Notes under the pieces: model-generated
Seen by the model: only the letters and a program-made list of their open reading frames with translations
The model's database searches: none
Told to the model about the DNA's origin: nothing
Program-made: the position numbers and the translations under genes
Assembly (NCBI GenBank): GCA_963843575.1
Contig: CAWJKZ010000015.1
Location: 251,911-315,910 of the forward strand
Direction of reading: 5' to 3'
Origin: an uncultured Acidobacteriota bacterium
GTDB lineage: Bacteria; Acidobacteriota; UBA6911
Length of the DNA: 64,000 bases
In this document: positions 29,878 through 40,294 of the stretch, one piece after another
Position numbering within the stretch: position 1 is the first letter of the stretch
Layout of the letters: every line of letters starts with the position of its first letter

Positions 29878-31317
29878 GTGGCGGAGGGAGGAGTTTCACT
29901 CGAACAGGCGAGGGCGCGGCCGTCGGACCCGGCGGCCATCTGCTCGTGATCTGCCCCACCGCACGGGACCGGAAGCATTTCTCCAGGCCGGAAATCCGGG
30001 ACAAGTATGACCTGGAATTCCGGGGAACGGACGAAGCGACGCGCGCTCCGGGCTTCGACGCGGTGCGGTTCTTACGGGAGACGGTCTGCGAGCTCCGCCG
30101 CCGGAGCGGCGAGTTCCAGGGGGTCGTGGGCATAGACGATTTTCCCGCATGTCTGCTCGCGGCTCTCTCCGGAGCCGCCCTCGGCTTCTCCACCCCGTCG
30201 TTCGAGTCCCTGTTCCTGTGCCAGCACAAGTACTACTCGCGCCTGCGGCAACTTGAAGCCGCTCCGGAGGCCACCCCGCAATTTGCCGTCGTCGAGCTCG
30301 AGCGGCCGCCGGCGCCGGCCGACATGCTGCTCCCCTTCCCGGTGTTCGTCAAACCCGTGAAGTCCTACCTCTCCATCCTGGCGCGGCGCCTCGACACGCC
30401 CGAGGATTTGTCCCTCACTCGACTCGAGGCGATGCGGCGCCTCGGCCCGGTGGCCCGTATGCTCGACGCGCTCGTCGGGGCATCGCCGCTCGCCGGGAAG
30501 TACCCCGTTTCGGCTTCATCCCTGATCCTGGAAGAGATCCTCTCCGGCCGGCAAGTCACCCTGGACGGTTACGCTCACCGGGCAGAGGTTGTGCCCCTCG
30601 GGGTCGTGGACTCCGTCTTCTACCCCGGGACCCTGTCGTTCGAGCGCTTCGATTACCCGTCCCGCCTCCCGCGCAGCGTGCTGGAGCGCATGGGCCGCAT
30701 CGCCGAGAAAGTCGTCCGGCACATCGGGCTCGACCGGACTTTTTTCAACATCGAATTTTTCTACGATCGGGAATTGGACTCGATCCGAATCATCGAAATC
30801 AATGGACGCATGGCATCGCAGTTCGCCCCCTTGTACCGCATGCTGCGCGGCATCGACATGTATGCCATGCAGCTGGAACTGAGCCTCGGGACGGGACCCC
30901 GGATGCCGCGGCGTCTGGTCTGCCGGGCTGGAGTCCAACGGCGTCGCGTCGAGCTTCGTCCTGCGACGCTTCGAGGACGGCCGCGTCACCCGCGCCCCCT
31001 CGCCGGAAGATCTCGAATGTCTGGCCGCGAGATTCCCGGGTAGTTTCGTAGAAGTGCTGGTTAAGGAAGGGGAACGGCTCTCGGACGAGTTGCAGGATGA
31101 CGAGAGCTACCGTTTTGCGCTCGTGAACCTCTGCGCCGGCACCTGGGTCGAACTTCAGCGGACGTTCGACGAGGTGGCCGCGACTGCTCCATTTCAAGTT
31201 CGAGCCGTGCGCGTGACGCGGCGGGCGCGCGGCACCGCGCCCGAATCCCCCGCACTCTGGGCCGCAAAGATCCCGATCCCGCCGCCCGGATTTGCGGTAT
31301 CCTGCCCCACATCATGA
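29878..31317 (+). CDS. ATP-grasp domain protein (frameshifted; start uncertain)
   Basis: CQHKYYSR, FPVFVKPVKS, LEEILSGRQVTLDG, FNIEFF, IIEINGRMASQF. After a frameshift near 30920 the frame continues SSFVLRRFEDG...DESYRFALVNL to the stop at 31317. Confidence 0.8.
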
Positions 31318-32451
31318 AATACTCGACAGACCCTCACGTAAGACTGGCGAAGCATCTCGACGACCTGCCCGGGGGATTCCCCCCGACGGACAGCGGTGTC
31401 GAGTTACGTATCCTGCGCAGGCTCTTCTCCCCCGACGAGGCCGAACTGGCGCTGCATGTCAGCCTCATACCTGAGGAGGCGCGCGTCATCGCCCGGCGGG
31501 CGGGGCTGGGCCTGAATGAAGCCGGCCTGCGGCTGTCGGCGATGGGGCGCAAGGGGCTCATCTTTGAGCTGACACAAGGGTCGGGACCCACCCAATACGC
31601 TGCCGCCCAGTTCGTGATCGGGATCTGGGAGTTTCACCTCAACGACCTCGATCCCGAGCTGATCCGCGACTTCAACGAGTACCTGCCCACCCTGGCCGGC
31701 GAAGCCCTGAAGTTCCCACAACTGCGCACCATCCCGGTCAACCGCAGCCTCGCGCCCCAGCTGACGGTCCTTTCGTACGAGAAGGCGGAAGCGTTGGTCG
31801 CGAGGGCGCAAGAAACTGCTCGTAGCCCCCTGCATCTGCCGACGCGAGCGGCGCATGGCGGGGGAGGGCTGCAGCGCCCCCGAGGAAGCCTGCCTCGTGT
31901 TTGACGCGGGGGCCGACCTGTTCGAGCGCAACGGCTTGGGGCGGTTCATCGACCGGCGCGAGGCGCTCGACATCCTCGGGCGTGCGGACGACGCGGGATT
32001 GGTGCTTCAACCCGGGAACAGCCAGGCCTCGATGAACATATGCTGTTGCTGCGGGTGCTGCTGCGGCGTGCTGCGGAGCATCAAGAAGTACCCCAAACCC
32101 GCGTCGCTGGTTTCGTCACCGTTTGTGGCCGAGTATTCGGCGGATTCATGCAGCGGCTGCGGCACTTGCACGAACCGCTGCCAGATGGACGCGCTGCGGC
32201 TGGAGGCGGGGAAGGTCGAGCTCATTCGCGAGCGCTGCATCGGCTGCGGCCTCTGCGTTTCCACCTGCCCGACCGATTCGCTGGTGCTCGTGCGCAAACC
32301 CGCGTCGGAACAGCCGAAGGTGCCCAAGGACGGGATCCGGGCCGTGATCGAGCTGGGCCGGTCGCGCGGCAAACTCAGTCCCGCCGGCCTGGCCCTGATG
32401 GTCGTGAAATCGAAAGTGGACCGACTGCGCGCCCTCCGCCTGCGGCAATGA
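31314..32451 (+). CDS. 4Fe-4S dicluster protein with N-terminal HTH-like region (frameshift near 31815)
   Basis: LDDLPGGFP N-terminus; PCICR; ICCCCGCCCG; CSGCGTCTNRC and CIGCGLCVSTC ferredoxin motifs. Confidence 0.85.
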
Positions 32452-32460
32452 TGCGTAAAC

Positions 32461-32703
32461 AAGTGGGTCCGGGCTTCAGCCCGGACGCCGTTTGCGGTCG
32501 CTATCGAGCGCAACTGTTGCTGAATAGGGCAGACCTAAAGACGTCCGGGCTGAAGAGGCTGTCCAACGGTTGAACCACCCGCTCTGCCCGTAAGACAAGT
32601 GGGTCCGGGCTTCAGCCCGGACGTCTTTTGCAGTAGCTGTAAAGTGCATCTGTCACGATATGCAACGGCTTTAAAAGCGTCCGGGCTGAAGCCCGGACCC
32701 ACT
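32461..32703. repeat. REP/REPIN cluster
   Basis: REP+ at 32461 and 32597; half REP at 32543-32554 fused to GAGGCTGTCCAACGGTTGA (32555-32573); inverted REP at 32679-32703. Confidence 0.9.
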
Positions 32704-32724
32704 GAAGCACGAGGGGAAACAAGG

Positions 32725-33684
32725 ATGAGGGATGTACGGGTCGCCAGCGTGCAGTTTGAGAGCGCTGCGGGAGACAAGCAGGCGAATTTCGAGAAGGTGG
32801 AACGGTTTGCCCGCGAGGCGGCCGGCAAGGGTGCCGCCATGGTGGTATTCCCCGAATGCTGTCTGACCGGGTACTGGTTCATGCGACACCTGACGGTGCC
32901 GCAACTGGCGCAGCTTGCCGAATCTGTGCCGGAAGGCCCGAGCTGCGCGAGGTTGCGCGCCATCGCCGTGCGGCAACGCATCAGCGTCGGGGCCGGTCTT
33001 CTCGAATCTACGAGCGTAGGTGTGTTCCACAACACCTACGTGGTGGCCATGCCCGACGGCACGGTCGTGCGGCACCGAAAACTGCACGCGTTCGAGCACC
33101 CCGCGATTCACCCCGGGGCTGAGTACACGGTCTTCGACACGCCGCACGGTTTCCGAGCCGGCCTGCTCATATGCTACGACGTCAACATCGTCGAGAATGT
33201 CCGGATTGCCGCGCTGCGCGGCGCAGAAGTCCTGCTGGCGCCGCACCAAACCGGTGGCTGCCGGACACGAAACCCGCACCTGATGGGGGTAATCGATCGC
33301 TCCCTGTGGGAGAACCGCCGCGACGACCCCGGGGCGATCGAGCAGGAGCTGCGGGGAGACAAGGGCAGGGGGTGGCTGATGCGCTGGCTCCCGAGCCGCG
33401 CGCACGACAACGGCCTCTTCCTGGTCTTCAGCAACGGCGTCGGGATCGACGACGACGAGGTCCGGACCGGCAACGCGATGATCCTGGATCCCGTACGGCC
33501 GGATCCTGGCCGAGATCTGGGAAAGCCGGCGACGACATGGTGGTCGCGGACCTCGACGCCGCGCTGCTGGAACAGGCCACCGGCCGGCTCTGGCTGCGCG
33601 CCCGGCGACCCGATCTCTACGGCGAGCTGGCCGGTAGCGACCGGCCTCGAGCGCGATACCCACCAGCTCAAGTTCGAGGAATAG
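32725..33684 (+). CDS. Nitrilase family / carbon-nitrogen hydrolase (local frameshifts near the C-terminus)
   Basis: MRDVRVASVQF, VFPECC, HRKLH, ICYD, SRAHDNG, RARRPDLYG. Confidence 0.9.
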   Translation: MRDVRVASVQFESAAGDKQANFEKVERFAREAAGKGAAMVVFPECCLTGYWFMRHLTVPQLAQLAESVPEGPSCARLRAIAVRQRISVGAGLLESTSVGVFHNTYVVAMPDGTVVRHRKLHAFEHPAIHPGAEYTVFDTPHGFRAGLLICYDVNIVENVRIAALRGAEVLLAPHQTGGCRTRNPHLMGVIDRSLWENRRDDPGAIEQELRGDKGRGWLMRWLPSRAHDNGLFLVFSNGVGIDDDEVRTGNAMILDPVRPDPGRDLGKPATTWWSRTSTPRCWNRPPAGSGCAPGDPISTASWPVATGLERDTHQLKFEE

Positions 33685-33734
33685 GGCAACTCTAGCCTTC
33701 GGAGCTTCAGTCTTGAGTCTTTGAGGATGCAGGG

Positions 33735-35634
33735 TCACACCTTGTCGGCGGGTATGACCAGGACCGGACGATCCGCCCGCGCCGCCACGTCGAGCATCAC
33801 CTCGTTGTGCTCCAGGAAGGATTTCAGACGAGGGCTGTAGCTTCCGATCACGATCAGGTCGTGCTCGGCCGCCTGCTCCAGTATGCCGGCGGCCGGCGTC
33901 GTGGCGCGTCGGACGAGCGCGTTGGCTTCGATATCGACGGCTCGCATGCTCGCCACCGCCCGGTCGAGGTGCTGGCGCATCAACGTTTCGGTGTCGTTCT
34001 GCCCGACACTGGCGTGGAAGAGTGTCACCGACGCGCCGAGGCGCCGCGCAATCCTGCCCCCCTCGATCACGTTGCGCTTGCCGGGCTCGCCCACGGCGGT
34101 GCAGATCATCATCTTCTCGATCCTGACTTTCGTCCCCTTGATCAGCAGCACCGGGACATCCGCGTGCTGCAGCACCGAGATCACGGTCGGGCCCAACTGC
34201 CTGGTCTTGGCCCGTGACCTCCAGGCCCGGCACCTTGGCCATCCGGGCGGCAGCGCCGCCGTGACGGGGCGGCAGCGCCAGCATCACCATTTCGTAGAGC
34301 GACTCGGACCAGCTCGGCCGCCATCTGCTCGGTGGGATCGCCGTAGCGCGCGTGCCACTGGGCGCTGCGCAGCGCCGATTCCCTTTGCGATCGCAGCGAA
34401 CCAGCCCGGAGGGCCCCCGCCCGATTCGGGGGCGGGCGCGATCCCGAGCACCGTCACCGAGGCCTGCAGCCGTTCCGCGAAGTGGCAGGCCACCTCCAGC
34501 GATGCGGGGTCCTCGCCCGCCGGGTGGTACAGCACACGGCGCGCGGCCTTCTTCAGGATGGTCCAGCCGGACAGGGACGTCCACACGGGATCGCCGGTCA
34601 GCCTTGTATCGGGCGGCAACGTGGCGTCGACGAGCAGCCCTTCCTCGCCGAAAGCGAGGGCCGGAGCCACCTGGCGCGTTCCCGGCAGATGGGGGAGCCT
34701 GAGCCTGACGCGACGGCACGAACCGGCGAAGCTCTCTTCCACCAGGTTCCCCATGCCCAGGACAGGCGTGCCGGCGGGCGGAATCGGGATCCCGCAATCA
34801 CCTGCTCGGGGCGGACAAGGAGCAGGACCCTCGCCCCGTCTTCGTGGGGATTGTCCGGCGGTATGGGCAAGCCGCAAGGGATCCGAAGCGCGCCTCCCCT
34901 GCCTCGGCCCGCCCCACGATCAGGGTCCCGGCCCCGAGAAACGAGGCCGTGTAGAGCGTCGACGGGCAGCGGTACAGCTCTTCGGCAGATCCGACTTCAA
35001 TCAGCCGGCCGCGTTCGAGAACACCGATGCGGTCCGCCAGTTCGAATGCCTCGTCCTGATCGTGCGTCACCAGGATGGTGGTCACCCCGAGGCGCTGCTG
35101 GATTTCCTTCAGGTTCCTCCGGAGCTGGCCCCGTATCTTGACGTCGAGGGCACCAAACGGCTCGTCGAGCAGCAGGACCTTCGGCTTGTGTGCGAGCGCG
35201 CGGGCCAGGGCGATGCGCTGCTGCTGCCCGCCGGACAGCTGGTGAGCGTAGCGGTTGCCGAGGCCCGCCAGCCCTACCATGTCCAGGAGTTCCTCGCAGC
35301 GGAGTCTGCGCTCCCGCTTCGGGACCTTGCGAATCGCCAGGCTGAACTCGATGTTCTCGATCACGCTCATGTGCCTGAAGATCGAGTAGTTCTGGAAGAC
35401 GAACCCGGTCCCGCGCTCCTGGGGCGGCAAGGCCGTGACGTCGCGGCCGTGCAGCAGGATTCGGCCCTTCGTCGGCTCCGTCAAGCCCGCGATGATCCGC
35501 AGGATCGTGCTTTTTCCCCCTCCGCTCGGACCCAGCAGCACGAACAGTTCGCCATCCCGCACTTCCAGCGAGACGTTGTCGACGACCCAGAGGCTGCCGT
35601 AGGATTTGGCCACGTTCTCGATGACGATTGACAC
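33735..35634 (-). CDS. cysA: Sulfate/thiosulfate ABC transporter ATP-binding protein fused to tandem USP domains (frameshifted)
   Basis: Walker A GPSGGGKS, FQNY Q-loop, LSGGQQQR, LLLDEPFGALD, VTHDQDEA. C-terminal USP1 (RRVLYHPAG...AERLQASVTVLG...GDPTEQ...VLQHADVPVLLIK) and USP2 (MMICTAVGE...ARRLGASVTLFH...HDLIVIGS...ADRPVLVIP). Fusion inferred across frameshifts at about 34200-34870. Confidence 0.75.
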
Positions 35635-35685
35635 TCTCGGGTCCCCTGCTGTCTACTTTCGCTTCCTGGAACTGACGTCACGGGT

Positions 35686-37136
35686 TCAGAAAGCCACTTG
35701 AATCCGGCTCAGCACCACGCCAAAACCGCGCTCCCCTTTCCGCGGCGCTCGCGCCGGGTCACCGAACCGCTCCCAGCCGAAATCGAGCATGTAGCGGACG
35801 TAGCGGTTGAGATACCAGTTCGGACCGAAGTATAACGTCTCGGCCCGGTTGTTTTTCACGCTTCCATCCGAGATCTGCAGGCTGGCATAGCGGACCTTCA
35901 GCTCCCACGCGCCGAAGCCGGGCCGAGCGCCGTCGCGGGTGAAAAGCTCGTGGCGCGGCACCACGGCCCCCGCCTCCGATTTGGTTTCCCCCGTCAAGAG
36001 CCAGGTGGCCTGGGCCATCCAGCCTTTGGCGACGACCCCGGGGAGATTCGCCCCGGCCGGGCCGAGGCCGTCGCGCCGCTGGTTGGTCTGATCGTATTCC
36101 GCGCGGATGGTAGCCGGGCCGAGGAGCCAGGTGAACTCGCCGTTGGCCCGGTTGTACCTGCCGTTCAGGGTATCGGGGGTAAAGAAAGAGGCGCTGCGGC
36201 TCTCCGTCTGACCGCGCACTCCCACGCCGCCGACGCTGCGGCCGCTCGTCCCGGCGCCGCCGAAAATCAACCCCCTGGCCCAGAACGATCCCGTGTGTTT
36301 CCACGGGGAGAAGCGCAGCCTCAGCGCGCTCTCCGGCGTGCCGTTGTTGTTGGGCGCGAGCAGCCCTTTGCCGTTGAACAGCCCGGCCTGGTACTCGAAC
36401 ACTCCCTTGCCGAATACCCCGGTTACCGCCATGCCCGGGCTGCGGCTCGGCGCGAGGTTGTTGACCAGCGAGCGTTCGACGAAGTCCTGGACGCTGTCGG
36501 AACGGAGTTCCTCCTGGCTGAACGGCATCTTGAACTGACCGAAACGGAACTGCAGCTGGTCGGCGCGTCGTATGTTGACGTAGAAATCGCGCAGGAGCGT
36601 GCTGCCGGTGTCGGCGAAGTCACCTTCGAGCTTGTATTCGTAATAGCGCTGCAGCCTCCCCTCCACGCTCAGACGGGCTCGCCTGACCAGGAAGGTGTTC
36701 GGCGGATGCTCGCCCGCCTGGTAGCCGCGGAAGTCGAGCTGGCCGTAACCCGCGATCTGGGTTTCGAAGCTGCCGTCCCCGTTCCGGATGAAGGCGTGGC
36801 TGTCGTTCCAGCCCGCGGATCCCTCGCGTTTCCCCTCGGGCTGCGACACGGCCCGGGGAGGTTCTGGCAGGCTGCCGCCAGCGGTTTGTTCCCCGTCTGA
36901 CCGGGTCGCGGCGGCGGAGGCGGGCACCGTGCGTTCGAGCGCGTCGATGCGCTTCTGCATCTCGGCGATCGCGCGTTGTTGTCGCTCGACCGTGCTTTGC
37001 AGTTGCTCGATCAAAGACACGCAGCGCCGGTCCGTCGACGCTAGCGCCCGCCGGCGTCCTGAGCCTGCGCCCGGCTGGCATGCGACAGAAGTAGAAAGAG
37101 GATTGCGGCCGTCAGCAGCAAAGTTCGCGAGTTCAA
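35686..37136 (-). CDS. OprO/OprP family anion-selective porin (frameshift after the signal peptide)
   Basis: AAAGGAG RBS and TTG start give signal MNSRTLLLTAAILFLLLSHASRAQA; coiled coil; FLVRRARL, GQFKMPFSQE, VERS, GAWELKVRY, GPNWYLN; C-terminal QVAF. Confidence 0.85.
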
Positions 37137-37209
37137 GCACTCTCCTTTCAGGACGCGGATGCGCGCGGATCCCCGCGGATCGACCTGGCGACAGGCCGGT
37201 CCGGCGTTT

Positions 37210-38067
37210 TCAAAGCCTTTCGGCACGCTTCCTGACGATCTCGATGGCCATGAGAAGGACGAAGGACAAGGCTGCGAGAGCGATGGCCATCGCGTAGGCG
37301 CCGGTGTAGTTGCGGTCGTCCAGCGAGCGCAGAATGTACAGGGTCGACGTTTCGGTGCTGCGGCTGACCCCGCCGCTCACGACCAGCACGGCGCCGATCT
37401 CGCCAAGGGCCCGGGCGAAGGTCAGCGAGATGCCGTACAGCAACCCCCAACGGATGGCAGGCAGGGTGACGCGGCGGAAAGTCTGCCACGAGCTGGCACC
37501 CAGGGTGCGGGCCGCATCCTCGTGATCCCGGCTCACCTGCTCCAGGACGGGCATCACTTCACGGACAACGAAGGGAAAAGAGATGAAAATCGTCGCCATC
37601 AGGATGCCCGGCCAGGCGAAGACGACCTTGATCCCCGTGCGTTTCAACACGGGATCGAACCAGCCGCCGGCGCCGAACAGCAGGATCAGCATGAAGCCCG
37701 CGATTACCGGGGAGACGGCGAAAGGCAGGTCGACGAGTCCATTGAGCAACCGTTTGCCGTGGAAATCGTCGCGCACGAGGACCCAGGCCACACACATCCC
37801 GAGGATGGTGTTGACGGCCACCGAGCCGAGGGCGATCAGCAGGGTCAGCTGAAACGAACTCGCCGCGTCATAGGATTTCAGTTCGCGCACGAAGGCCGGG
37901 AGGCCGCTGGACAGGGCACCCCAGAAGATTGCCGCCAGGGGCCCCAGCAGCAGCACCCCGGCATAAACTGCGGCCGTCGCGATCAGGGCGCCGCGGACGA
38001 GCGCCTGGCGCGAAACCTCCGGCCTCCGCCTCACGGCGGGCAGGTTCTCCGGCGTGCGCCCGTTCAT
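37210..38067 (-). CDS. cysW: Sulfate ABC transporter permease CysW
   Basis: LVDLPFAVSPVIAG, PFVVREVMPVL, EDAARTLGAS, ARALGEIGAVLVVSG; ATGA overlap with cysT. Confidence 0.9.
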   Translation of the reverse strand: MNGRTPENLPAVRRRPEVSRQALVRGALIATAAVYAGVLLLGPLAAIFWGALSSGLPAFVRELKSYDAASSFQLTLLIALGSVAVNTILGMCVAWVLVRDDFHGKRLLNGLVDLPFAVSPVIAGFMLILLFGAGGWFDPVLKRTGIKVVFAWPGILMATIFISFPFVVREVMPVLEQVSRDHEDAARTLGASSWQTFRRVTLPAIRWGLLYGISLTFARALGEIGAVLVVSGGVSRSTETSTLYILRSLDDRNYTGAYAMAIALAALSFVLLMAIEIVRKRAERL

Positions 38068-38900
38068 CCTTTCCTCCCCGCAACCCGCTGGAGGCGGTCG
38101 ACGGCCAGCATCAGGGCGAAAGACATGAGCAGCAGGACGACCGAGACGGCGCTCGCGCCCCGGGGGTTCTGCGACTCGATCTGGCCGTAGACGTATACCG
38201 GGGCCGTCAACGTTTTCATGGGGATGTTCCCCCCGACCACGACGATCGAGCCGAACTCGCCGAGCGCCCGCGCAAAGCTCAGGAGCGAACCGGTCAGCAT
38301 GGCCGGCCGGATCCAGGGGAAGACGATCCGCCGGAAGGTGGTCCACTGGGAGGCGCCGAGGGTCCAGGCCGCCTCCTCCTGCTGCCGCTCGGCTTCCATC
38401 AGGACCGGCTGAACCGCGCGCACGACAAACGGGTAGGTGACGACAAGCAGGGCGAGGATGATCCCAGGCGTGGCGAAAATGACCTGGATCCCGTGCCCGG
38501 CGAGCCACGCCCCCACGGTGCGTTGCGGGCCGTAAAGCGCCACGAGCATTACTCCTGTGACCATCGTGGGGATGGCAAACGGGACGTCGACCAGTCCGTT
38601 CAGCAGCACGCGCCCGGCAAACTCGTACCGCACGAGCACGAATGCCGTGAGGGTCCCCATGACGGTGTTGATCAGCGTGACGGCCAGCGCTGCCGCGACC
38701 GTCAGTCTGAGCGCGGCCCAGGCAGACGGTTCCGTCAGTTCGTTCCAGAACGCGTCGAGCCCCCCTTCCAGCCCCTTGTGGAAGACCGCGGCCAGGGGCA
38801 GGGCAATAATCAATCCCAGGTAGACGACCGCGGTGAAGCGCAATCCGAGGCGCGACGGGGAGGCTCCGCCCCGCCAGAGGTTTTCCGCCACAGCGCTCAC
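38064..38900 (-). CDS. cysT: Sulfate ABC transporter permease CysT
   Basis: VLVRYEFAG, DVPFAIPTMVTG, PFVVRAVQPVL, EEAAWTLGAS, ARALGEFGSIVVVGGNIP; GTGA overlap with sbp. Confidence 0.9.
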   Translation of the reverse strand: MSAVAENLWRGGASPSRLGLRFTAVVYLGLIIALPLAAVFHKGLEGGLDAFWNELTEPSAWAALRLTVAAALAVTLINTVMGTLTAFVLVRYEFAGRVLLNGLVDVPFAIPTMVTGVMLVALYGPQRTVGAWLAGHGIQVIFATPGIILALLVVTYPFVVRAVQPVLMEAERQQEEAAWTLGASQWTTFRRIVFPWIRPAMLTGSLLSFARALGEFGSIVVVGGNIPMKTLTAPVYVYGQIESQNPRGASAVSVVLLLMSFALMLAVDRLQRVAGRKG

Positions 38901-39976
38901 CGGGACCTCCGGATTTCCCCGACCGCCCTGCTGTATGCCCCGTCGGCCCCGTATATCTCCGTGCTCACCTGTTTCCATCCGCCGAGAAAATCGATCTTCC
39001 ACAGATCTTCCACGGGCGGATACAGGGCCTTGCTCTCCTCGGCGGCATTCGGATCGATGGGCCTCAGACCGTATTTCGCATAGATCCGCTGGGCCTCCAG
39101 GCTGCAAAGGAAATTGACGAAGTCCTCCGCGGCCTCACGGGTGCCGTGGTCGTCGACGTACTTGTCGATCAGCGCCACCGGGTTCTCGATCAGGATCGTC
39201 GAGCGCGGGATCGCGTATTCGTAGGTCTGACCCGCCTGCCGGCCGACGAGCACCTCGTTCTCGTAGGTGATGGCGACGTCGCCGACCCCCTTTTCGAAGT
39301 TGGTGATCGATTCGCGCGCTCCCTTGTCCAGGATGGAGACGTTGGCGAAGATACGTTTGAGGAGTTGCTGCGCCGCGGCGCGGTCGCCTTTCGGGGTGCC
39401 CGCGTAGCCGCGCAGGGCGGCACCGTAGATGGCGTTGATGTTCCACTGCGCGCCGCCCGAGGTCTTAGGGTCGGGCGTGAGGATGTTGAGGCCCGGCCGC
39501 GTGAGATCCGGCCAGTCAAGAATGTTGAGCGGGTTCCCCCGCCGGACCGCGATGACCACGATCGAGGTGCTCACCATGCCGCGCGACGGGTTCGCGCGCC
39601 AGTCGTGCGTGATCAGGCCGGCTTCCGCGATCCTGTCGATGTCGGCCTCGAGCGAGAGCGCGGCGATGTCGGCTTCGAATCCGGCGATGATCGCCCGGGA
39701 CTGCGCGCCACTCCCCTGGTAGGACTCCCGGAACTCGACGTCCTTTCCGGTCTTCCCCTTCCAGAACTTCTGGAAAGCCGGGATGATCGCCTTGCCGTAA
39801 GCCTCGCGCGGCGTCGTGTACCCTCCCAGGGTCAGGGTGACGGAGTCGCGACCCGTGGTGCGCGAACCCGAGCAGCCTGCAAACGCCATGGGGAGAATGA
39901 ACAGAAAGGCCATAACGGCCGGCCGCAGCCAGAGCAGAAAAGGCCTGGCGACGATGCGCCTGTACTTCTCGGTCAT
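38897..39976 (-). CDS. sbp: Sulfate ABC transporter substrate-binding protein (probable lipoprotein)
   Basis: SYQGSGAQSRAIIAGFEADIAAL, VRRGNP, TPDPKTSGGAQW, GDVAITYENE, ILIENPVA, FLGGW; lipobox-like FAGC. Confidence 0.9.
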   Translation of the reverse strand: MTEKYRRIVARPFLLWLRPAVMAFLFILPMAFAGCSGSRTTGRDSVTLTLGGYTTPREAYGKAIIPAFQKFWKGKTGKDVEFRESYQGSGAQSRAIIAGFEADIAALSLEADIDRIAEAGLITHDWRANPSRGMVSTSIVVIAVRRGNPLNILDWPDLTRPGLNILTPDPKTSGGAQWNINAIYGAALRGYAGTPKGDRAAAQQLLKRIFANVSILDKGARESITNFEKGVGDVAITYENEVLVGRQAGQTYEYAIPRSTILIENPVALIDKYVDDHGTREAAEDFVNFLCSLEAQRIYAKYGLRPIDPNAAEESKALYPPVEDLWKIDFLGGWKQVSTEIYGADGAYSRAVGEIRRSR

Positions 39977-40048: not shown

Positions 40049-40083
40049 AAAAAAAGGAGCACCGGGTGCCCCCGGGCTTCTCC
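40049..40083 (-). terminator. Intrinsic terminator in the riboswitch expression platform
   Basis: Minus strand GGAGAAGCCCGGG-GGCA-CCCGGTGCTCC-TTTTTTT, located between the aptamer and the sbp start. Confidence 0.7.
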
Positions 40084-40105
40084 TGAGGCTCGCGCGTCGC
40101 GAATG

Positions 40106-40256
40106 CCCTTCCCATGTGCCTGCGAGGTTAGCTGACGGACTCGGGCTGGAAGTACCCTACACAGCCGTTGGCTGCGATACGCCCCAGACTCTGCCTGAAT
40201 GCAGAGCGACGGTTCCCCCGCGTTGCTCGTCCTGCTGCGAGCAACTTCAGCAGACA
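40106..40256 (-). ncRNA. c-di-AMP riboswitch (ydaO/yuaA class)
   Basis: Minus strand GCTGAA-[hairpin GTTGCTCG..CGAGCAAC]-GCGGGGGAACC-[hairpin]-GGGGCGTATC-[hairpin]-GTAGGGTACTTCCAGCCCGAGTCCGTCAGCTAACCTCGCAGGC..GGGAAGG matches the ydaO-yuaA consensus blocks in order. Confidence 0.9.
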
Positions 40257-40265
40257 GCTGTCATG

Positions 40266-40294
40266 ATGCTAAACGGGGCAATCCGGTTTGTCAA
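40266..40294 (-). promoter_or_regulatory. sigma70 promoter of the riboswitch/sulfate ABC operon
   Basis: Minus strand TTGACA-N17-TAGCAT, ending a few nt before the aptamer. Confidence 0.75.

Follow-up and report, generated by a model that had tools for sequence, protein, structure and literature searches.

What is a pair of universal stress protein (USP) domains doing at the end of the ATPase of a sulfate importer, and is the DNA that encodes them, which changes reading frame several times along its length, really one gene? The question is raised by a minus-strand locus in a stretch of 64,000 nucleotides (the window: contig CAWJKZ010000015.1, positions 251,911 to 315,910) from the genome of an uncultured Acidobacteriota bacterium. 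Read in order, the locus encodes an ATP-binding cassette (ABC) nucleotide-binding domain (NBD), a domain resembling the C-terminal, TOBE-like part of CysA, and two USP domains, called USP1 and USP2 here. The answer that is argued below has three parts: the importer ATPase is fused to its USP pair in nature, the frameshifts belong to the assembly, and the USP pair would act as a sensor. As a whole, this account has a probability of roughly 0.7. Its parts are not equally firm, and they are taken up in turn.

One polypeptide

The gene starts with a GTG at 35634 (the protein begins MSIVIENVAKSYGS; AGGGGA lies 8-9 nt upstream). The ABC part runs uninterrupted from there to about 34860, after which the frame hops through the CysA_C-like stretch, USP1 and USP2 to the stop. 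Pfam, applied to pieces of the window, places ABC_tran (PF00005) in 34798-35634 (E 1.3e-36; 126.7 bits, cut-off 25) and Usp (PF00582) in 33735-34196 (30.1 bits, cut-off 24). A sequence-only reading of this DNA had already joined a CysA-type ATPase to two USP units across the frame changes, on the strength of a handful of short peptides. Every one of these is found on the minus strand of the window: ARRVLYH, HADVPVLLIK, MMICTAVG, DLIVIGS and ADRPVLVIP share one frame in a three-frame translation, and GDPTEQ is in another. The same reading saw no internal start, and intact orthologs indeed have neither stop nor start between the CysA C-terminal domain and USP1.

These orthologs bear out the fusion. 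A query spanning the junction (window 34290-34799) found matches in 10 of 41 related genomes, and in the nine others that matched the junction lies inside open frames of 625-662 amino acids (aa). Eight relatives have clean open reading frames (ORFs) of 622-635 aa; one of them, G001, is of the same genus as the window and encodes the protein in a single unbroken ORF of 630 aa (L002:661-2553), in agreement with the ORF of about 630 aa that the sequence-only reading had proposed to confirm by alignment. The ninth relative, G026, switches frame within the ABC part. ABC_tran is present in all eight clean orthologs (113-130 bits, above the Pfam cut-off) and so is Usp (24.7-69.7 bits, cut-off 24), which matches two separate stretches in three of them; the CysA C-terminal family PF17850 also matches all eight, at E 2e-6 to 5e-3 and always under its cut-off of 29.7 bits, and TOBE_2 matches two weakly.

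Wider searches tell the same story. When a protein collection was searched with the USP part, 37 of the 40 matches were proteins of 612-644 aa containing both PF00005 and PF00582, named at their source as sulfate-transport ATP-binding or ATP-binding cassette proteins, and coming from Blastocatellia, Acidobacteria and Anaerolineae metagenome-assembled genomes. HMMER, run over 1.84 billion representatives (at 50% identity), returned 288 relatives of the USP pair at E<=1e-3, and the USP module occurs in 17 genomes of a 401-genome sample of the phylum (G063, which is unpublished, is counted among the 17). A pattern scan over genomes taken one per species yielded 229 loci, the best 80 of which, all from metagenome-assembled genomes, were used for counting architectures and riboswitches. 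In 72 of these 80, Walker A and the CTAxGEPGK loop of USP2 lie in one frame, 450-480 residues apart; of the other eight, four run off their contig and four change frame within the gene. The ATPase is thus fused to the USP pair in 76 of the 76 best-80 loci where fusion could be judged, and not one of the best 80 has a gene boundary between the two. The stop followed by a separate USP gene that would have undone the sequence-only reading does not appear among them, and the ABC_tran+Usp+Usp architecture for which it had suggested searching is conserved.

(Two sets of candidate exceptions were set aside. Matches of 278-350 aa looked like stand-alone tandem USPs, but the nine that were inspected all begin within the CysA C-terminal domain and are truncated fragments. 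Four loci lacking Walker A in frame looked like split genes; each has a frame switch inside the gene and no gene boundary.)

ATPase, CysA C-terminal/TOBE-like domain and two USP domains on one polypeptide is, then, a genuine arrangement, far beyond chance, and the fused architecture is conserved and under purifying selection, as the substitution rates given next attest.

A frame broken by the assembly

Why, then, is the copy in the window in pieces? Compared with the G001 ortholog, to which its DNA is 86-88% identical, it has five extra insertions (located in Table 1). They come to 7 nt, which puts the start and the end of the gene out of frame with each other as the sequence stands. Once the frame is restored, the window copy is free of stops and has 92% amino-acid identity to G001, with a ratio of nonsynonymous to synonymous substitution (dN/dS) of 0.09 at dS 0.46. 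By domain, dN/dS is 0.04 for ABC, 0.15 for CysA_C, 0.24 for USP1 and 0.06 for USP2.

Other genes of the same assembly have fared no better. On contig C24 (252860-261310, outside the window), rpoB is matched in seven pieces with at least five frame changes and rpoC in four pieces in at least three frames. In the window itself, a gene for a TonB-dependent-receptor-like outer-membrane barrel (PF25183; 44289-47690, minus strand) is spread over three frames, which cover model positions 1-36, 32-758 and 760-837. The assembly comprises 27 contigs at a completeness of 88%, which fits frameshifted marker genes. The shredded rpoB and rpoC, the dN/dS of 0.09, the stop-free restored frame and the intact relatives identify the five frameshifts, almost certainly, as insertion/deletion (indel) errors of assembly and not as biology. 

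Two neighbours on the plus strand, a Cys-rich gene of 4Fe-4S type (31314-32451) and a CN_hydrolase (nitrilase-like) gene (32554-33695), also run on in a second frame, probably through assembly indels. With small indel errors so frequent, any call of a frameshift or pseudogene in this genome needs equal caution.

Two USP domains of unequal conservation

An AlphaFold model of the USP pair, built on an alignment of 91 sequences, is confident (pLDDT 88.9, pTM 0.88) and shows two alpha/beta units, with the strands of USP1 at E25-E156. Its best fold matches are tandem USPs: Rv2623 (3cis), TTHA0350 (3ab8) and UspE/YdaA (4r2j, 5cb0), at Foldseek E 4e-12 to 3e-10, TM 0.59-0.66 and 11-22% identity. The C-terminal regulatory domains of SLC12 cotransporters come next (E 1e-7 to 1e-5), followed by single USPs that include the cAMP-bound 5ahw. 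Searching the PDB by sequence with the USP pair gave no match at E<=1, and the look-alikes in the ESM Atlas are generic USP clusters alone (scores 0.85-0.86). Prediction of a homodimer of residues 236-630 returned a score of 0.01, a 'no answer' that counts neither for nor against dimerisation.

The two units have not been conserved alike. USP1 retains scattered structural positions alone, has few conserved columns and contains a variable linker; it is a degenerate, mainly structural partner in the pair. USP2 has a near-invariant L-I-C-T-A-x-G-E-P-G-K-x-D-V-x-x-G-G-R-L-A-R extending over beta1, the beta1-alpha1 loop and alpha1, and also conserves V-T-L-L-[H/Y/F]-V in beta2, an H-L pair, and D-L-I-V-x-G at the end of beta4. 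C509, T510, G513, E514, P515, G516, K517, G523, A527, D590 and G595 all reach at least 90% conservation, and the family loop C[T/S]AxGEPGK is found in 69 of the 91 sequences. USP2 thus appears to keep the common elements of an adenosine pocket: the end of beta1, the hydrophobic/aromatic stretch of beta2, and the first glycine of the beta4-alpha4 loop. At the positions of the ATP loop, that first glycine is conserved at 97% and the second at 53%, and [N/D]-D stands where the G-S/T would be; to judge by the alignment, the triphosphate-binding G-x2-G-x9-G-S/T loop has given way to a family-specific, Gly/Lys-rich beta1-alpha1 loop, C-T-A-x-G-E-P-G-K-x-D.

The USP domain of KdpD, as described in PMC8214093, retains nothing of the Walker-like loop but the first glycine; one phosphate is held by its beta1-alpha1 loop together with alpha1, and adenine is accommodated by its beta2 stretch. 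USP2 seems to follow this general trend with different residues, which makes an adenosine-containing, non-triphosphate ligand plausible but does not identify it.

The operon and its leader

The fused ATPase is the last gene of a minus-strand cysP-cysT-cysW-porin operon (Table 1), and the order cysP-cysT-cysW(-porin)-ATPase recurs in 19 loci, the window's included. By this context, the gene probably encodes the ATPase subunit of a CysP/CysT/CysW-type importer of sulfate or thiosulfate. The porin gene, of the phosphate-selective porin family Porin_O_P, is also part of the operon at L012, L042, L018, L046, L048 and L049. Depending on the genome, it lies between cysW and the ATPase gene or ahead of cysP; its placement in the sulfate operon suggests a dedicated outer-membrane anion channel. 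No conserved partner gene adjoins the operon. 

In G035 and G039, of genus g22, the fused ATPase follows an ORF of 390-459 aa with a signal-peptide-like start (L016:3809-5188, minus strand; L017:2544-3716, plus strand), for which there is no Pfam match and no significant similarity to the porin of the window.

Table 1. Features of the ATPase gene, its operon and leader, and a repeated palindrome (window coordinates)
Feature	Position	Strand	Remarks
cysA-USP-USP gene	33735..35634	-	sulfate ABC importer ATPase subunit (probable); 630 aa if the five insertions are ignored; stop at 33735-33737
ABC nucleotide-binding domain, residues 1-235	34930..35634	-	frameshift-free; 96% identity to G001; dN/dS 0.04; tblastn
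Probable CysA C-terminal/TOBE-like regulatory domain, residues 236-350	34581..34929	-	insertions near 34875 (+2) and 34789 (+2)
USP1, residues 351-490	34158..34580	-	degenerate, variable linker; insertions near 34388, 34308 and 34214 (+1 each)
USP2, residues 491-630 and stop	33735..34157	-	C-T-A-x-G-E-P-G-K loop; beta2 T-L-L-[H/Y/F]-V; D-L-I-V-x-G; Pfam Usp
Outer-membrane anion porin gene, Porin_O_P family	35686..37140	-	Pfam PF07396, E 3.4e-41
cysW permease (approximate start)	37210..38060	-	TIGR00969, 298 bits (cut-off 240); TIGR02140, 296.6 bits, under cut-off of 329.1
cysT permease (approximate start)	38064..38900	-	TIGR02139, 286.6 bits (cut-off 246.1)
cysP/sbp sulfate-binding protein	38897..39976	-	TIGR00971, 229.9 bits (cut-off 155.5)
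Terminator-like hairpin and T run, between aptamer and cysP	40055..40073	-	consensus scan
c-di-AMP (ydaO-type) riboswitch aptamer	40102..40262	-	Rfam RF00379, 68.6 bits (gathering 38); full length, model positions 1-134
Promoter-like site TTGACA-17-TAGCAT	40266..40294	-	consensus scan
Palindrome GTCCGGGCTTCAGCCCGGAC sites	13502, 13637, 13772, 13848, 32467, 32603, 32679, 40363, 44127, 44182, 53989, 54064

The sequence-only reading had also placed the operon behind a riboswitch for cyclic di-AMP (c-di-AMP), and a full-length RF00379 aptamer is indeed there. The aptamer followed by a terminator-like hairpin has the look of an OFF switch. Under strict filters it is the sole RF00379 match found in this genome: any control by a c-di-AMP riboswitch in this organism would have the sulfate operon as the one target detected.

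How general is this leader? A riboswitch precedes 7 of the 19 fused operons with upstream sequence (those of the window, G001, G033, G037, G252, G087 and one of the two in G119, designated G119a); in G035 and G039 a riboswitch-cysP unit is on a different contig from the fused ATPase, and the riboswitch-free fused loci have not even a weak RF00379 match at E<=1. RF00379 is found in 10 of the 41 relatives, and it stands before cysP in six genomes that bear the fusion and in none of the 31 that do not. In a 151-genome sample of the phylum, 26 riboswitch loci occur in 21 genomes; only three of them precede a sulfate operon, in each case one with the fused ATPase. There is little to contrast this with: of the 41 relatives, 15 encode a sulfate-binding protein, and among these only G017, G023 and G030 are without the fusion (and without the riboswitch too). 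Related genomes are, besides, not independent observations. G119 (L049, L050) has two fused sulfate operons, one with a c-di-AMP riboswitch before the porin gene and one without.

A covariance model made from 21 aptamers and run on the best 80 species loci finds a riboswitch in 24 of them, and in 22 of the 51 that are assessable, that is, have at least 8.6 kb upstream; since the best 80 overlap the loci of the relatives already described, these counts are not independent of the preceding ones. By record label, the riboswitch is present in 17 of 20 assessable Blastocatellia loci, 0 of 6 from Chloroflexota, 0 of 4 from Thermoanaerobaculia and 0 of 2 from Pyrinomonadaceae. In a tree of 22 fused proteins, the riboswitch operons lie in one clade of ten (seven with the riboswitch), and G119a is nested among riboswitch-free operons. 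This distribution suggests at least two gains of the riboswitch or several losses.

Diadenylate cyclase (DAC), the necessary condition for c-di-AMP signalling, is present in 19 of 20 fusion genomes tested (9 of 10 among the relatives, and all 10 of the distant ones), so that the homologs are not found mostly in genomes without it. It is also present in 39 of the 41 relatives regardless of fusion. DAC therefore does not discriminate, and its co-occurrence, which the sequence-only reading had proposed as a test, says little about a c-di-AMP receptor. The companion test, co-occurrence with ydaO, comes out divided: among the 41 relatives and in the 151-genome sample the riboswitch was found paired with a sulfate operon only in fusion genomes, but 29 of the 51 assessable fused loci do without it.

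A built-in sensor?

The arrangement that best accommodates these observations can be put as follows. The USP pair would be a built-in cytoplasmic sensor on the importer's ATPase; USP2 would bind an adenosine-containing or some other phospho- or sulfo-anionic metabolite, and the ligand, once bound, would tune ATP hydrolysis and sulfate transport. In the lineage whose records mostly carry the Blastocatellia label, this genome among them, the operon is additionally placed behind the c-di-AMP riboswitch and its terminator-like hairpin. It is probable that the pair senses in the cytoplasm and modulates the ATPase, as appended TOBE, C2 and CBS domains do in other ABC importers; ligand binding, allosteric control and the nature of the ligand are the parts of the scheme that we infer.

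Several observations weigh against this account. The ATPase of G001 falls under all the curated NCBIfam ATPase cut-offs (for CysA, 316.1 vs 342.75 with TIGR00968 and 285 vs 502 with NF008105; the best-scoring family is PhnT2, at 341 with a cut-off of 457.7), so that the 'sulfate' assignment rests on the neighbouring genes. Of the known nucleotide signatures of USP domains, the ATP loop G-x2-G-x9-G-(S/T) occurs in one of the 91 family sequences, and there in the USP1 linker, while the KdpD motifs for c-di-AMP, (A/G/C)xSxSx2N(Y/F) (from PMC8214093) and SxS-x20-FTAxY (from PMC4686210, as quoted in PMC8214093), each occur in none. By motif, the family accordingly lies outside the ATP-binding USPs of UspFG/MJ0577 type and outside the c-di-AMP-binding USPs of KdpD type; ligand binding is predicted from the conservation of the pocket alone. 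Finally, cysP, cysT, cysW and the porin gene are free of frameshifts relative to G001, yet the ATPase gene has five within 660 nt, a clustering that is unexplained, and the insertion sites are outside long homopolymers. (A search of sequencing runs for the insertion sites found only small shares, 0.05-0.11 of words, and the public contigs of four runs over 33600-35700 span none of the five.) The clustering and the sequence around the sites are what might be expected if the gene were a true pseudogene in this organism, the five insertions having disabled either its regulatory tail or the entire ATPase. But rpoB and rpoC are no less broken in this assembly, and further genes of the window are broken too; the frame can be restored without meeting a stop and at a dN/dS of 0.09, and the 88% completeness in 27 contigs is consistent with frameshifted marker genes; a pseudogene is very improbable, and the assembly-error reading is retained in what follows.

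If the pair is a module with a function, what does it bind? The sequence-only reading took it for a candidate c-di-AMP receptor, by which one messenger would stop the importer twice, through transcription at the riboswitch and through allostery at the USPs. The leader speaks for this, as does its history: the full-length riboswitch with its terminator-like hairpin, the sole one found in the genome; its restriction, before cysP, to fusion genomes among the 41 relatives and in the 151-genome sample; its appearance in one clade of the protein tree and again in the nested G119a, which would make at least two events; the DAC of nearly all fusion genomes; and the resemblance of USP2 to the KdpD USP in lacking the Walker-like loop, keeping its first glycine and conserving the beta1-alpha1 loop (PMC8214093). 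The proposal is weakened by the absence of both KdpD motifs, an absence that the sequence-only reading had itself remarked for one of them and that deprives the receptor claim of its sequence evidence; by the riboswitch-free majority of assessable fused loci, including all six labelled Chloroflexota and all four labelled Thermoanaerobaculia; by a DAC that is there with or without fusion; and by a contrast group of three genomes among relatives that are not independent. Neither supported nor excluded by all this, a c-di-AMP receptor must be called unlikely. Better placed, at odds that are still less than even, is another adenosine-containing or anionic metabolite: ATP, ADP or AMP bound in a non-canonical way, cAMP, or, as feedback by product, adenosine 5'-phosphosulfate (APS), 3'-phosphoadenosine 5'-phosphosulfate (PAPS) or 3'-phosphoadenosine 5'-phosphate (PAP). 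The conserved pocket elements, with a Gly/Lys-rich loop at the N-terminus of alpha1, are of the kind that such a ligand might use, the closest folds bind ATP (TTHA0350 in 3ab8, and Rv2623), a single-domain neighbour binds cAMP (5ahw), and the fusion is widespread without the c-di-AMP riboswitch. PAPS reductase and ATP sulfurylase, moreover, belong with USPs in one class of alpha/beta nucleotide-binding proteins, and both of these enzymes use the beta1-alpha1 loop to bind phosphate. The near-absence of the canonical motif tells against ATP and cAMP, the alternatives that the sequence-only reading had held in reserve, and the APS/PAPS idea is without direct support. One can also do without a ligand altogether and think of the pair as a scaffold or a module for protein interaction, for example stabilising a dimer or docking a partner. 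A degenerate USP1 and the lack of both known nucleotide motifs would suit a scaffold, and Rv2623, the top structural match, is reported (PMC5549992) to bind an FHA domain of the ABC transporter Rv1747. By secondary-structure position, however, the near-invariant residues of USP2 gather where a USP has its canonical ligand pocket (the beta1-alpha1 loop, beta2 and the end of beta4) rather than in a surface patch, and the operon has no conserved adjoining gene that might encode a partner; a pair that binds no small molecule is improbable. The preferred reading thus stays with a sensor, and with a ligand class broader than any one nucleotide.

Relation to known systems

The nearest relative in position is the CysA of CysPTWA (E. 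coli; the Alicyclobacillus structure; PF17850), which likewise comes after cysP-cysT-cysW and whose C-terminal domain after the NBD has a probable counterpart here, matched by PF17850 below its cut-off. Members of the fused family, whose ABC domains are 63-77% identical among themselves, differ from it in some 280 extra C-terminal residues folded, by prediction, as two USPs, and in scoring under the curated CysA cut-offs.

The nearest relatives in logic are importers whose ATPase has been given a sensor. OpuCA and OpuAA are ATPases of osmolyte ABC importers with tandem CBS domains that bind c-di-AMP, and there are bacteria in which c-di-AMP works at the level of transcription as well. An importer ATPase with an appended tandem module for sensing nucleotides would be common to both, the sensor being a predicted one here. 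The fold is CBS and the cargo a compatible solute there; here it is the USP fold and sulfate, with ligand binding only predicted, and no CBS family is among the Pfam matches of the eight orthologs at E<=0.01. In the trans-inhibited importers (the C2 domain of MetN, the TOBE of ModC, the regulatory domain of MalK) closure of the NBDs is blocked when a cytoplasmic ligand occupies a domain at the C-terminus of the ATPase. The logic proposed for the fused family is the same, the fold and ligand are different, and the mechanism is carried over by analogy only.

The USP fold itself has other hosts. SLC12 cation-chloride cotransporters (KCC, NKCC, NCC) also have a tandem USP-like module fused to a transporter, and their C-terminal domains bind nucleotides; they are eukaryotic secondary transporters, and the module is on the membrane domain and not on an ATPase. 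Rv2623, TTHA0350 and UspE/YdaA differ in being stand-alone proteins, of which Rv2623 and TTHA0350 bind ATP through the canonical motif; Rv2623 is reported to regulate an ABC transporter in trans (PMC5549992). The USP of S. aureus KdpD (PMC8214093, PMC4686210) has in common with the fused family its place within a multidomain protein and the features of the loops already compared; KdpD is a histidine kinase with a single USP domain, and its c-di-AMP motifs are missing from all 91 sequences of the fused family.

An uncharacterised variant, and what it might mean

Full-text searching of the literature (subscription journals and supplements were outside its reach) turned up no description of an ABC-USP or sulfate-USP fusion and no c-di-AMP riboswitch on sulfate transport, the latter in a search that did not extend to the association lists of the ydaO riboswitch papers. 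The ABC-USP-USP ATPase is real, conserved and apparently undescribed. Its members are already in public databases under automatic names, which makes it an uncharacterised variant and not a new kind.

Sensor domains appended to ATPases (TOBE, C2, CBS) throttle ABC importers, and USP domains serve kinases and secondary transporters as sensors; the fusion of a USP pair to an ABC ATPase unites these two strategies in one protein. The family is compact, fused in all judged loci, under purifying selection and endowed with a new invariant loop, all of which recommends it as a clean target for identifying a ligand. The recurrent pairing with a riboswitch makes it testable whether c-di-AMP reaches the uptake of sulfur and anions in Acidobacteriota. 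It is doubtful that c-di-AMP acts twice on sulfate uptake in Acidobacteriota of the Blastocatellia type, at the riboswitch and through a USP class, unrelated to that of KdpD, that would stop the pump by way of its C-T-A-x-G-E-P-G-K loop; were it so, signalling by this nucleotide would reach beyond the homeostasis of potassium and osmolytes into the uptake of anions and sulfur, and there would be a second USP solution to c-di-AMP recognition.

A repeat family in the window

The 20-nt GC-rich palindrome GTCCGGGCTTCAGCCCGGAC occupies 12 intergenic sites of the window, often clustered, where 0.02 would be expected by chance. It has the appearance of a repeat family resembling repetitive extragenic palindromic (REP) elements, and one copy is located just upstream of the promoter-like site of the sulfate operon.

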